From assembly GCA_963845755.1 (NCBI GenBank), contig CAWJTV010000020.1, forward strand, positions 704,001 through 768,000: DNA of 64,000 bases, given 5' to 3'. This DNA comes from an uncultured Planctomycetota bacterium. GTDB taxonomy: Bacteria > Planctomycetota > Planctomycetia > Isosphaerales > Isosphaeraceae. Under the pieces are notes generated by a model. That model ran no database searches. It was not told the DNA's origin and saw only the letters and a list, made by a program, of their open reading frames with translations. A program made the translations under genes and the position numbers. Positions 39,759 to 44,117 of this stretch are shown in pieces; within the stretch, counting starts at the first letter, position 1, and each line of letters opens with the position of its first letter.

Positions 39759-39882
39759 AACTGGTCCGTCCGGCCCGTTAAGCCGGTCGTAGGTTCGAAT
39801 CCTACCTCCTCCGCCCCGTCCATCCGCCAGGCGCGTGGCCGGGGCGGTTAGGCGTGTCGCTCCGGAAACTTGTGCAGGTCTC
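39759..39882 (+). ncRNA. Y-RNA-like unit 1 (3' part): hairpin, T-arm and closing strand
   Basis: CCGGC-CCGTTAA-GCCGG, GTAGG-TTCGAAT-CCTAC, CTCCTCCGCC, closing ACTTGTGCAGGTCTC complementary to GAGACCCGCA of the displaced 5' piece. Confidence 0.6.
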
Positions 39883-39938
39883 GGTTTTCTCGCACGCACT
39901 TCAGGATCATCATCAAAGTCACCAACACGGAGGCGATC

Positions 39939-40166
39939 ATGGCCGAACGACTCAACGGCGGAGCCGTCCTGCACGTCCGCTTCGACGGCCGAAGCCTTGA
40001 CCTGCCGCTGGGCGATCTCCATGTCGGCCTCGGGGCCGACGACTTCGAGATCAAGACCGCGCTGGCCCGGCACCTCGAGGTCCACGAGGCGAAGCTGCGC
40101 GACTATACCGTGGACCGGCACGAGACCGGCAACCTCACCGTCCGGCCCGAGGCCGTGTTCGGTTGA
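39939..40166 (+). CDS. Small putative ubiquitin-like (beta-grasp) protein
   Basis: GGAGG RBS; 75 aa; beta-beta-alpha-beta-beta pattern; C-terminus RPEAVFG; ThiF/E1 gene in same locus. Confidence 0.6.
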   Translation: MAERLNGGAVLHVRFDGRSLDLPLGDLHVGLGADDFEIKTALARHLEVHEAKLRDYTVDRHETGNLTVRPEAVFG

Positions 40167-40185
40167 TCGGATAATCAAGGGACCA

Positions 40186-41617
40186 ACCCGTACCCAACGG
40201 CACGAGCGTACAAACAACTCTTTCATAAGGCAGAAGTTGGGTGGTGTCCCAAGCGTATTGAATGTCGTAAGTCTTGCGGTGTTTGCGACTTAGGCAAATC
40301 TTACTGAGGGATATGTGAGCCATTCACGCATGGTCCACACATGGTCGGTCAACCCCGCGGCCATCGCGGGCGATCGCTGCCGAGGTCGGCCCTGCTCGTC
40401 TCGATCCGCCAACGTCCGTACAGGCCAGCAGAAGTTATAGCTGTAAATTGTGAAATAGGTCATTGATTCATGCACTTGCCAATCCTTCGAGAACGTGTAG
40501 GTCTTGCGTACCTTCCGGGCGTTGCGATGTCGGTCCGTCGCGTTGTCTCGTTCCAGGAACGAGACGTTGACCTGCAGGCTCACCTTGGAGCGCCGCAAGG
40601 CCCGACCCAACGCCGCCATCGTGCCGAAGATCAGATGGACCAGGATCTCCACCACCCGACCCCGCCGACGCTTCTTCTGGACAGTGGCATAGGTCAGCTC
40701 CGGCAGCGGCTCCTTCTCGGGCACCATCCGGTGGCTGTCGCGCCCCGTCGGGGTCGTCGTGACGTCCGTCCCGTAGACGTGCAGGATCGCGTCCTTGTAG
40801 GCCGGGTAGTCATCGCTGGTCATCAGCCGCAAGGGACGGCCCTCCGTCCGCTGGTAGACGTCGCTGACCACAGTCTCGGTCTGCTCAGACATTCGCGCCC
40901 CGGGAACGACGCAGAGCACCAGCTTGTGCTCCGGATCGTAAGCCGTGTGATCCCACCAATCGCCCCGCTGGGCGTCGGCCGGGTCTGCCGGGTCGCAGTG
41001 CTCCTGCTTCTTGTAGACGAAGGACCATTTCTCGTCGAACTGGACTTCTTCAGTCCGAGGGGGAAAAAGCCACGAGTTCGTCGTGGAGTTGCTGGGCGTG
41101 ATCGCCCAGGAGTCGGCTGTAGCGGACCACGGTATCGCGGTGCACCCCCACCAGCCGAGCGGTGGCCCGCACCCCAGTGCGATCGGCCACGTGTCTTATC
41201 AAGTCGAGGGCCTTGTCCGCGGGTAAGGTCGAACCGAACAGGGGTGTCCCCTTCCGTTCGGAGAACCGGGCCTTGCAGGTATGGCAGTAGAGCAGCCGGA
41301 TCGGTTGGGTCTTGCCGTAGCGGCCGACGACGGTCAGATTGCCGTGTCCCCTCTTGCCGTAATCGGGGCAGGCCGGGTCTTGGCAGCAAAAGCGGGAGAG
41401 ATCGTCCATGGATACATCTCCATGATTGCGTGACTGGTGCAGACGAACTCATAGCGATAAACCCGTTATAAGCGGTGGACTTGCGACATTCAATACAGCT
41501 AGGACACCACCAGAAGTTGCAGGTTCGAATTCCTGCCGGCCCAATGGCTCAATCATGGGGCCGTAGCTCAATGGCAGAGCGCTGCTGAGTTTCAACGCTG
41601 ATGCGACTTGTACGGGG
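40186..41617 (+). ncRNA. Y-RNA-like unit 2, permuted tRNA-Met-like mimic, split by IS1 (40186-40239 + 41520-41617)
   Basis: CCCGTAC/GTACGGG closing helix; order anticodon loop, T arm, closed acceptor, D arm. Confidence 0.72.
40240..41511 (-). mobile_element. IS1-family element (insA 41409->41050, insB ->40290)
   Basis: IRs GGTGGTGTCC..TATTGAATGTCG; 8-bp duplication AGAAGTTG; CCQDPAC..CHTC, FDEKWSFV, TSDDY, LERDNAT, SPAMAAGLTDHVW. Confidence 0.92.
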
Positions 41618-41634
41618 CTGGACATCGATCGGGA

Positions 41635-41788
41635 ACAACCCGCACCCGACGGCATGAGCCTACAAACCTAACCGGGACCAGTCCTCGAAAGAGGGTGGGG
41701 GTTCGAGTCCCCCCGGGTTAAAATCCGTGGCGAAACTGGTAGACGCGCTGGTAGATGATCTTAAGCTCATGCGACTTGTGCGGGCTGT
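41635..41788 (+). ncRNA. Y-RNA-like unit 3, permuted tRNA-Leu-like mimic (uninterrupted)
   Basis: CCCGCAC/GTGCGGG and GCATGAGC/GCTCATGC helices; variable arm CCTC-GAAA-GAGG, T arm GGGGG-TTCGAGT-CCCCC, D arm TGGCGAAACTGGTAGACGCG. Confidence 0.75.
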
Positions 41789-41792
41789 CTAG

Positions 41793-43918
41793 CCTGGATT
41801 CCCATGGAGGGGAAACTCGCTAACAAATCGGCAAGCTGCATGAAGATGTGGCAATGCGTTGCGACGTTAGTTCTGGACTTTACACCACGGTCGGCCCGGG
41901 GGCCAGCATGACCTCATCCGAAGACCAGCCGCAGTCGCTTGCCCCCCAGCCAGGGGACGGCCACGTCGGTCTGATCAAACCCGGCGGCGATCAGCAGCGG
42001 ATTGTGTGCCCGCCTCTGATACCGGACCACCAACTCGCTCTCTCCGATCGTGATTCCCGCCGTGGCATCCACCAAGTCTCGGAACAGGTGGCGCGACTCG
42101 GCGACCTCGTAACCCTGGCCGACTCGGGCTGCCAGCAGCCGGTACAGGCTGCTGGCCATCAAGGTCAGTTGCAGGTCGCAGTTGACCTTCATCGCCACCG
42201 CCGAGCTCAGCGCGTCCATGTGGAAGAAGTCGATCCCGTCGGCGATGGTGTTCTCGATGATCATCCGCCGGGCGTAGCGGCCGATCAGGTGCGACGCCGA
42301 CCGGCTCAACTGGTTGGTCAAGAGCAACGTCGGCTCCTCGTGACCCAAATCGGCCACGGTCAACTGGCGGATCGGGCCATCGTAGTCCGTCAGCGCGACC
42401 TGGCGGTCCAGCACCCGCGGTGTCTTGTAGGCGCGGGCGACATTCTCCAGCTCGACCCGCCGCCAGGCCGAGAGCGGGACCCGCGCGATCTCCGCCAGGT
42501 GCTTGGGGGTCCGTCGCCGCAACGTGATGAAGTCGATCTTCATCCGGTTCAGCTCGTTGAGCTTGGCGTACGTCGTCAACGTGCAGTCGAAGATCAGCTC
42601 CGCGGGCAACCGTCCGGTCCGTCGCTTCCAGAATTCGACGAAGCGAAGGACCTCGTCATCCCGCTGATCCTTGCGCAACTCGGCATTGGCGTAGCAGAAG
42701 ACGCGGGTCTCGGCGTCCTGGGCCAGGAAGGCCAGGATCCCCTTCTGACTCCGGCTCCGCTTGGAGATGTAGTGCTTCTCGACCAGGGCATCCTCGCCGT
42801 GGAAGGGGATGGTGTGGAAGTCCAGGTCGAACGAGGTCCCCCATCGCAAGCCCAGACGACTGACCGTGTCGAACCAGTCGCGCATCAAGGTGGGATAGCA
42901 CGTCGGCGGGATCCGGCAACTGTATTCGGTCAGGAACGATCGCTTGGGGATCACATTCAAGCCAGCGAAGAGAGCCAGCCCGTCGTCGAGTACCGCGCTC
43001 ATGACGTGGGAATGGGCGCATCGCCGAAGAGTTTCAGAGCCAGGAGCGACCGAACGGCGCAGGCGGCGGGAATCATCTCGGAGCCGGGGAAGCCGCACCG
43101 CCCCAGGAGCATGTCCAAGTCGGCGGCGATCAGCCAGGGGAAGAACAGGAACAGGCCGCCGAACTGGGTACGCAGGTGGCGTTGTGTCAGGTCGAGACGG
43201 CGAACATCGGCGATCTCGGCGACGACGGGGCGCGGCTGTTCGGGTCGCTCGTCGTCAACTCGTCGCGGCAGCTTGGCGAAGCCCTCTTCCTTGAGGATGG
43301 CGGCGACCGCCGCCGGGCTGAGGGCCTCGCCGTCGCGGGCCAAGGCGCGGCTGATGTCGTGGACGGAGAGGTTCTGCTTGCGCAGGGCGACGACCTGTTG
43401 CCGCAGCCGTTTCCGTTTGGCGGGAGGCCGGCCCTGGCGTGGGGCGGGGGCGAAGAAATCGCGGTCGGGCTGGCTGCGGAACTGGTGGACGAGGACGCGG
43501 AAGCTCCCCGGTGAGTAGCCGAAGCGAGCGGCCGCCTCGGCCGATGGTAGTCGGTTGACGAAGAACGCTCGGAGGGCCTCGTATTGTCGATGGGTGGAGT
43601 TGGAAGGCTCCAAGAAGCGGCGGGCCAGTGTTAGGCGCTCTCTGGAATTATCGTCCATGATGCCACGGTGCCATCCTGATTCGGAGTCGCTCGTTGATGT
43701 GTTGATAGAATGCGGGAAATCCTGGGATTTCAGGCCGAAATGGCGACCCAACATCGAATCTGCATCGGTTGGATGTTTGGGTTGACCCTGTGGCTGGGGT
43801 ATCTATAGTTCTTGGGCGTCGATAACGAGACGGTGCCAGAGACAACCGGATTTTAGGGATAAACCGGATCAGTTGCAAGCCAATTTGTTAGCCGGTTTCC
43901 CCTCCATGGGAATCCAGG
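41793..43918 (-). mobile_element. IS1380-like (IS4 superfamily) element; transposase 43658->41914 with frameshift near 43015
   Basis: IRs CCTGGATTCCCATGGAGGGGAAAC; CTAG on both sides; FDLDFHT, LIFD, YARRMIIENTI. Confidence 0.85.
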
Positions 43919-43931
43919 CTAGCTGAGAGAA

Positions 43932-44117
43932 CGCTGATGCGACTTGTACGGATCGTAAACCGTTGGTGTCGGTCGGCCGGAGAATCGGCCGGCCGAAACC
44001 ACGTCGGCACGACCCGTACCCGATGGCACGAGCGTACAAACCGCCGCGTGGTCCCCCGACGGGGAGGGCGATCCCCTCCGTCTCACCCGAGGCGCGGTTG
44101 TACGCTCGGAAGGGAGG
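43932..44117 (+). promoter_or_regulatory. Structured leader of the TROVE-like gene with a reversed-order copy of the ncRNA closing helix
   Basis: CGCTGATGCGACTTGTACGG (43932) precedes ACCCGTACCCGATGGCACGAGCGTACAAAC (44012); competing complement GCGGTTGTACGCTCG just before RBS AGGGAGG. Confidence 0.55.

Follow-up and report, generated by a model that had tools for sequence, protein, structure and literature searches.

Candidate Y RNA genes with a distinct type of stem beside a very divergent Ro60-like gene in a planctomycete genome

Introduction

Y RNAs bind the protein Ro60 through a stem formed by their paired ends, and in vertebrate Y RNAs the sequence GGUCCGA forms a bulged helix that Ro60 contacts; in bacteria, Y RNA genes are found no more than 4 kb from rsr, the gene of the bacterial Ro60 homologue, on the same strand, and arrays of them beside rsr are already known (Chen et al. 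2014, PMC4201824, accessible text). One bacterial type, YrlA, has been likened to permuted pre-tRNAs (Wang et al. 2018, 10.1101/312249, accessible text). Here we analyze a 64,000 nt stretch of DNA from an uncultured planctomycete of the family Isosphaeraceae (GenBank assembly GCA_963845755.1, contig CAWJTV010000020.1, positions 704,001 to 768,000; below, "the window", whose own positions are used as coordinates throughout) in which repeats with paired ends stand upstream of a gene whose product is predicted to have the Ro60 fold. We consider it likely that these repeats are Y RNA genes beside a very divergent Ro60-like gene, with the stem that they share as the presumed docking site.

The described systems closest to this one are as follows: YrlA (RF02553; Salmonella Typhimurium and Mycobacterium smegmatis) adjoins a Ro60-type gene on the same strand, has ends that form a long stem and a circularly permuted tRNA-like insert (T arm, closed acceptor-like hairpin, D arm), and can be present in several copies per locus. 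Metazoan Y RNAs (RF00019) have an end helix, a bulged C followed by GA on the 5' strand, an internal loop and a second helix. The Ro60 homologue of Deinococcus radiodurans, Rsr (which with its Y RNA Yrn1 and PNPase makes up RYPER), forms a ring and has a vWA domain; its Y RNA is encoded upstream on the same strand, and Yrn1 is thought to tether the Rsr ring to a second protein. The locus described here shares these features with each of the three, and differs from each as set out below.

Repeats with paired ends in the window

The units of the array and the gene that they accompany are:

16331..16470, minus strand: 5' half of unit 1 with a conserved upstream region (GGAGACCCGCATCCGACCGCCAGAGCATACAAACTGGTC ends at 16331), recognized by by-eye alignment to the intact unit 1 of a genome of the same genus (G001)
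39759..39880, plus strand: 3' half of unit 1, with a T-arm-like hairpin GTAGGTTCGAATCCTAC, a long hairpin and the 3' motif GCTCCGGAAACTTGTGCAGGTCTC
40184..40239, plus strand: 5' part of unit 2, with the 5' motif at 40186-40215, cut by the insertion sequence (IS) here labeled IS1
41512..41622, plus strand: 3' part of unit 2, with T arm, acceptor-like hairpin, D arm and 3' motif
41637..41786, plus strand: unit 3, a closing stem with permuted tRNA-like cargo; 50.7 bits with covariance model R1 (below)
44129..45689, plus strand: Ro60-like gene, 520 aa (ATG at 44129), encoding a helical ring part and a vWA domain with DKSGSMS; in two frames

The original prediction for this DNA, made from the letters alone, was an array of Y-RNA-like units that share a covarying closing helix, and its sequence observations are borne out. 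The 30-nt 5' motif is present at 40186, 41638 and 44012 (three matches with at most 3 mismatches, compared to none in 100 shuffles) and the 19-nt 3' motif at 41597, 41765 and 43933 (three matches, compared to a shuffle mean of 0.07), and the degenerate copies are genuine, one being the 5' half of unit 1 on the minus strand (16372->16331) and the other its 3' half (39759-39880). The pairing proposed for the two motifs, CCCGTAC/GTACGGG, CCCGCAC/GTGCGGG and GAGACC/GGTCTC, is likewise found, and the closing stem appears in the predicted fold of unit 3. When the inserted elements are excised in silico the rejoined units 1 and 2 fold with the same closing stem, unit 2 as closing stem, T arm, acceptor-like hairpin and D arm. 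Unit 3 (41637-41786) is the single intact unit in the window and the sole R1 match in the 14.3-Mb genome (E 1.6e-8); R1 also touches the 5' part of unit 2 weakly (40185-40282, 17 bits), it scores the intact G001 homologue of unit 1 at 48.4 bits, and it detected no unit downstream of the gene in the window. Allowing for the insertions, the units lie 0.1-4.4 kb upstream of the Ro60-like gene on the same strand.

Two more exact 13-mer matches to the core of the 3' motif elsewhere in the genome (contigs C19 and C38) are chance occurrences, as neither has an R1 match and a reversed-pattern control matched more often. A CRISPR-like or REP-like (repetitive extragenic palindromic) repeat was also considered and rejected on the paired ends, the tRNA-like inserts and the fixed protein partner.

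Covariation of the stem in related loci

The three or four copies in the window are too few to prove covariation; the family as a whole does prove it. We collected 80 loci around relatives of the Ro60-like protein, of which 79 were analyzed since one (L110) duplicates another (L109). A strict 5' sequence anchor that makes no demand on the helix occurs in these loci 132 times on the strand of the gene and twice on the other strand. The units defined by this anchor (119 units in 50 loci) use 80 different helices, and 86 of the 119 have all seven of the seven lower-helix pairs, compared to 15.7% with shuffled partners. Alignment of 28 short units gave 83.1% of cells paired (69.7% when shuffled), changes on both sides in 13 of the 19 pairs, and a covariation score of 0.419, which none of 500 shuffles reaches (shuffled 0.186; slid registers 0.08-0.14).

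Covariance model R1 was built from the alignment of these 28 short units. It has 201 matches at E<=0.01, all 201 of them on the gene strand, in 74 of the 79 loci and in five phyla. In 150 units aligned with R1, 89.7% of the cells are paired compared to 71.3% in shuffles, two-sided changes number 592 cells compared to 190, and the covariation score is 0.542 compared to 0.208; this alignment was fitted to R1 and is hence biased towards the structure. Both helices of the stem covary, and the pairing that had been proposed from the few copies in the window covaries strongly across 150 related copies; both conservation and covariation, the absence of which near homologous genes would have spoken against the prediction, are present in the family loci.

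The stem so defined is, from the outside inwards, a freely covarying helix of 7-9 bp, a bulge of two Cs, the step R-A/U-Y, a small internal loop and a second helix, which ends in an invariant AGC/GCU and is followed by single-stranded NUACAAA. Invariant within it are the closing C-G pair of the lower helix, the two bulged Cs, the A-U pair (present in 149 of 150 units), AGC/GCU, ACUY on the 3' strand, and NUACAAA. No Rfam model matches this stem. Scans of the window and 17 family loci at the Rfam gathering scores found no Y RNA family and returned only tRNAs and one large-subunit rRNA fragment.

A Ro60 fold that Pfam does not detect

What protein, then, accompanies the stem? Intact homologues of the window's gene product are 505-520 aa long and, where their sources name them, are called "hypothetical protein". 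The AlphaFold (AF2) model of one of them (P0004) has a predicted local distance difference test (pLDDT) score of 70 and a predicted template modeling (pTM) score of 0.48, and when Foldseek was run with this model the top 12 Protein Data Bank (PDB) hits were all Ro60, Rsr or TROVE proteins, aligned over about 520-570 columns (full length) with probability 1.00, E values of 1.8e-10 to 8e-8 and template modeling (TM) scores of 0.39-0.57. Among them are chains from human (9nen, E 1.8e-10), D. radiodurans (Rsr, 2nvo, TM 0.55/0.57), a Thermus phage (9l5y) and Xenopus (1yvp). The Ro60-type vWA family PF25045 exceeds its cut-off in two homologues (P0050, 28.7 compared to 27.7, and P0260, 33.4) and stays below it in the window's piece and in P0004. 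There is also a direct, weak sequence link to the canonical TROVE proteins of related genomes (E 1.4e-8, 33% identity over residues 123-335, to a Pfam-TROVE-positive site in genome G018). The predicted fold points to the neighboring gene being a very divergent Ro60/Rsr homologue whose orthology is visible in the fold and not in Pfam. A six-frame Pfam search of the five genomes that carry the divergent gene (G000, G001, G008, G014 and G022) gave no TROVE hit.

The window's copy of the gene has a one-base frame change near 44333; no short-read DNA contig from three soil runs covers 44299-44392. Several frame changes are found in the same gene of all four related long assemblies (G001, G008 and G014 among them; loci L027, L028 and L029), and because their places differ among these assemblies we suspect that they are indel errors of long-read assembly and not decay.

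The protein family is large, with 1018 clusters at 50% identity (E<=0.001) and 420 stretches among species-representative genomes, in Planctomycetota, Cyanobacteria, Acidobacteriota, Chloroflexota and Armatimonadota. The bacterial catalogue of Ro60 proteins and Y RNAs was limited to TROVE-annotated genomes; its planctomycete Ro genes encode 531-568 aa, plus one of 435 aa, and have one to three YrlAs (Table S1), and its cyanobacterial ones encode 531-533 aa (Chen et al. 2014, accessible text), whereas the cyanobacterial members of the present family have about 470 aa. Because of that limit we think that the divergent clade lies outside the catalogue's set of 254 species, a judgment made from these lengths and from the TROVE-limited search as the accessible text describes it.

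The stem follows the protein clade

The 41 related genomes that we searched include 11 with a Pfam-TROVE gene and 5 with the divergent gene, and none was found with both. R1 matches exactly 5 of the 41, which are those with the divergent gene, always at the locus of that gene, and it has no match at E<=1 in any of the 11 canonical TROVE loci (flanks of 1.5 kb). Five canonical loci (L122, L008, L009, L007 and L010) have instead end-to-end Rfam YrlA matches of 44-62 bits (gathering score 69), and a sixth (L120) has YrlA matches to the core only. Across the searched genomes each of the two protein clades goes with one stem type, and each stem type with one clade.

This match bears out the proposal that the stem marks a distinct family, as it is found only with the divergent Ro60 clade. 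The accompanying statement that the stem does not resemble the Ro-binding sequence was too strong, since the layout shares the bulged helix of the Ro60 site. The YrlA stem in Rfam reads cggCga / AUGCu / uggGgaa ... uucCcca / aAaAcUuG / ucGccg; the stem here reads helix / CC / RA / loop / ...AGC + NUACAAA ... GCU... / RACUY / helix, the YrlA model aligns only to the tRNA-like core, and the partner protein here is one without Pfam TROVE. The stem here has the layout of metazoan Y RNAs, with two bulged Cs in place of their one, and its cargo is tRNA-like. ACUUG likewise stands on the 3' strand of human Y RNAs. The Ro60-like protein itself is about 16% identical to D. radiodurans Rsr, and its neighbors are proteins of 75 and 295 aa.

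If the repeats are Y RNA genes, as we think likely, the stem would dock on the Ro60-like ring as Y RNA stems dock on Ro60, and the variable insert would display a second partner or a substrate mimic, either recruiting or mimicking a tRNA-related partner. Several results weigh against this reading. Pfam TROVE (PF05731) is absent from the window's pieces of the gene, from 3 close homologues and from 20 distant representatives (down to 30% identity), and the confidence of the P0004 model is moderate. The best Rfam YrlA score is 31.8 bits compared to a gathering score of 69 and covers only the tRNA-like core, and Y_RNA (RF00019) has no match at E<=10 in the window region or in two short units of a related locus (L038). 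The bacterial 5' motif GNCGAAN0-1G is unmatched, as the units read CCCRAYGG and share CGA only if R is G. At the R-A/U-Y step the changes are one-sided only, and R and Y are unpaired in 26 of 150 cells. Finally, the frame change in the gene and the survival of only one whole unit mean that the local copy may be non-functional. The earlier picture of a constant protein-binding stem with a variable tRNA-like effector, as in Y RNAs, fits the stem, the YrlA-type cargo and the Ro60-fold neighbor, and is presumptive for protein binding.

Cargo of the units

The cargo of unit 2 matches RF02553 YrlA with 31.8 bits (E 4.3e-4; model positions 23-85 at 41511-41584) and that of unit 3 matches the same model positions with 21.6 bits (E 0.38). 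Positions 23-85 are the T, acceptor-like and D arms, which are in permuted order in units 2 and 3; unit 1 has only the T arm of these. ARAGORN calls no tRNA in the window. Across the family the cargo is usually a tRNA-like domain in circularly permuted form. In some relatives the cargo of short units is a hairpin only and the stem is unchanged, and in others the cargo called by ARAGORN inside R1 matches is a whole tRNA: Gln (G001 unit 3), Lys (L046), Met (L072 and L111) and Pro (L066 and L071).

Some of these calls are of complete, unpermuted tRNAs with the Y stem as leader and trailer (L027 4746-4874, which is G001 unit 3; L046 2427-2549; L072 674-801; L071 3345-3467).

Could the stems be the leader-trailer processing helices of tRNA-like precursors, from which an endonuclease excises or circularizes the cargo? 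The whole tRNAs inside R1 matches in several relatives' units, the many loci that follow long tRNA arrays and the likeness of YrlA to permuted pre-tRNAs (Wang et al., above) would all fit such a role. It is nevertheless unlikely, as hairpin-only short units bear the same stem, and the stems are found only beside the Ro60-like gene and not at the genome's other tRNA genes. Moreover, the conserved unpaired CC bulge, ACUYG and NUACAAA, together with the invariant AGC/GCU, point to sequence-specific recognition and not to a mere helix.

A permuted stem in the leader of the Ro60-like mRNA

The motifs at 43933 and 44012 had been listed with the other motif copies of the array. They are ordered 3' then 5', 60 nt apart, and do not flank a cargo, and they are better described as a permuted element of the mRNA leader:

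43933..44041, plus strand: Y stem in circularly permuted form within the leader of the mRNA, its 3' strand (43933-43951) and its 5' strand (44012-44041) standing on either side of a variable GC-rich hairpin
44030..44107, plus strand: leader hairpin GAGCGTACAA...TTGTACGCTC, which ends just before the Shine-Dalgarno sequence and has GAGCG in common with the permuted stem's upper helix

The GUACGG/CCGUAC helix is present in both the minimum free energy and the centroid folds. The permuted stem is kept in 6 of 13 close loci (the window, G001, L032, L033, L036 and L043) and absent from the other seven. RNAalifold with the 6 sequences retains the permuted helix, in which two pairs vary in a compensatory way (one as A-U, G-C or A.C; the other as C-G, U-A or U-G). 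It also retains the hairpin GAGCGUACAA/UUGUACGCUC, which on its 5' side overlaps the strand that the permuted stem uses for its upper helix and on its 3' side runs up to the Shine-Dalgarno sequence; at the base of this hairpin six pairs are invariant in 6 of 6 sequences, and one more pair has a single compensatory change. The six related sequences suggest that the leader element is possibly a docking stem built into the mRNA for autoregulation, and the Ro60-like protein might then bind its own message at this inside-out stem.

That the elements act mainly in cis on a long operon transcript, controlling translation or stability of the Ro60-like mRNA without giving rise to separate small RNAs, is very unlikely: although every unit is on the gene strand, upstream and downstream, and six genomes have the permuted leader stem beside a Shine-Dalgarno-abutting hairpin that competes for GAGCG, sets of four or five units with differing cargos, some of them past the stop codon, are hard to fit to leader regulation, and the permuted form is restricted to a subclade among the close loci examined.

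Conserved neighbors

Two further genes accompany the units and the Ro60-like gene:

39939..40166, plus strand: 75-aa open reading frame (ORF) of no known family, between units 1 and 2, with the C terminus ...TGNLTVRPEAVFG; found by tblastn in 54 of the 79 loci, on the gene strand
45836..46723, plus strand: 295-aa ORF of no known family, following the Ro60-like gene; found by tblastn in 56 of the 79 loci

The intact order, on one strand, is seen in G001, G008 and G014 as unit 1, 75-aa ORF, unit 2, a variable unit 3 and the Ro60-like gene, followed by one or two short units and then the ORF of about 295 aa; the family as a whole has up to four or five units per locus. The two ORFs occur together in 46 of the 79 loci, always on the gene strand, and tblastn finds neither in the 11 canonical loci. 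The 75-aa ORF spans five phyla, and its differences from its relatives are mostly at third codon positions; it has no Pfam hit, and its clusters in the protein atlas are all labeled "hypothetical protein". The 295-aa ORF has no Pfam or NCBIfam hit, and a protein atlas search with it came back empty.

The model of the 295-aa protein (pLDDT 69) starts with a helix at the N terminus and continues with two beta barrels and a long helix, its N-terminal half being tandem OB-like barrels, and it resembles known folds only weakly (Mpa OB domains and RNase II/S1, best E 2.4e-4). When a complex of this protein with the Ro60-like protein encoded on the same contig was predicted, the ipSAE was 0.59, compared to 0.00 for the best of 3 controls, with runs that agree in at least 95% of contacts and a partner pLDDT of at least 73. 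The calibration set had 157 solved complexes, 116 of which reached the mark, and 215 mismatched pairs, 2 of which did, and at ipSAE <=0.60 there are only 18 of the 157 solved complexes together with both of the passing mismatches, so the support for a complex is weak. The 295-aa OB-like protein may be the tRNA-related partner proposed above.

A separate Ro60 ribonucleoprotein?

A wider interpretation, plausible enough to be stated and short of probable, is that these parts make up a second, separately evolving Ro60 ribonucleoprotein. It would have a ring that is invisible to Pfam, a docking code of its own nearer to the animal bulged helix than to YrlA, and two dedicated partners, the 75-aa protein and the OB-like 295-aa protein, which may bind the ring; its cargo would range from permuted tRNA mimics to whole tRNAs, perhaps capturing stages in the origin of Y RNAs from tRNA transcripts, and one subclade would have an autoregulatory inside-out leader stem. 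What is new here is a Ro60 clade that had stayed hidden, the stem type that belongs to it, the one-to-one match between clade and stem, the two dedicated neighbors and the permuted leader stem; our literature searches, in which subscription journals were thinly covered, turned up none of these.

A large Ro60 clade thus escapes cataloguing that is based on TROVE annotation, and its clade-specific stem is a natural experiment on how Ro60 recognizes Y RNA. The two neighbors are candidate partners in a system for which few bacterial effectors are known, and the presence among the family loci of cultured cyanobacteria, such as Moorena producens 3L, Microcoleus vaginatus, Aphanothece hegewaldii CCALA 016 and Cylindrospermum sp. 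NIES-4074, would make tests possible.

Mobile elements and the state of the local array

Three mobile elements, a 5.25-kb element, IS1 and IS2, interrupt the array in the window:

11080..16330, no strand assigned: copy A of the 5.25-kb element, the inverted repeat partner of copy B
34506..39758, no strand assigned: copy B of the 5.25-kb element, inserted in unit 1, with an IS66-type TnpB gene and a resolvase-domain gene
40240..41511, no strand assigned: IS1, 1272 bp; its 34-nt inverted repeats are imperfect, and AGAAGTTG is duplicated; splits unit 2
41789..43922, no strand assigned: IS2, about 2.13 kb, with 44-nt inverted repeats and CTAG flanks; separates unit 3 from the leader of the gene

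Copy A and the reverse complement of 34505-39758 share 99.7% identity over 5258 nt, and copy B has Pfam matches to TnpB_IS66 (6.7e-24, 39094-39711, minus strand) and Resolvase (2e-16, 38150-38794, minus strand). The two copies have exchanged their 8-bp target duplications: GGCGGCTC is left of copy A and its reverse complement left of copy B, and AACTGGTC is right of copy B and its reverse complement right of copy A. This swap indicates that the segment of about 18 kb between the copies (16331-34505) was inverted by recombination between them, or else that two orientations are compatible with the assembly. Because of the inversion the 5' half of unit 1, flanked by its 8-nt duplication AACTGGTC, and the region upstream of it have been relocated and flipped, and are now 23 kb away on the opposite strand. 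Unit 1 would thus have been hit by the 5.25-kb element first and then parted from its promoter side by the inversion.

IS1 has two minus-strand ORFs with weak transposase-like Pfam matches (DDE_Tnp_IS1, HTH), all under the curated cut-offs, and is present once in the genome, with five relatives at 79% identity. IS2 matches DDE_Tnp_1 just above the cut-off (23.3 bits compared to 23) and has four full-length copies in the genome, whose 99-100% identity speaks for recent activity. The array in this genome is real, and it has been mostly wrecked by mobile elements, so that the system is probably impaired here.

About 100 nt upstream of unit 1 are conserved in four related genomes (window 16372-16470, minus strand; L027 5500-5570; L028 7880-7945; L029 7490-7560), and this stretch includes GCGAACAT about 90 nt before the unit. 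The conserved region may be the promoter of the array.

tRNA gene arrays around related loci

Long arrays of tRNA genes stand before or after the cassette in several related loci (L074 1-2372, L077 2111-3311, L072 7-772, L109, and L101 7352-7759), with more than 25 tRNAs upstream in L074. Within the tRNA array of the Armatimonadota locus L077, 83 nt (3099-3181) match positions 1077-1160 of bacterial 23S rRNA with 54.3 bits, which is over the Rfam gathering score, as a stand-alone look-alike of an rRNA fragment.

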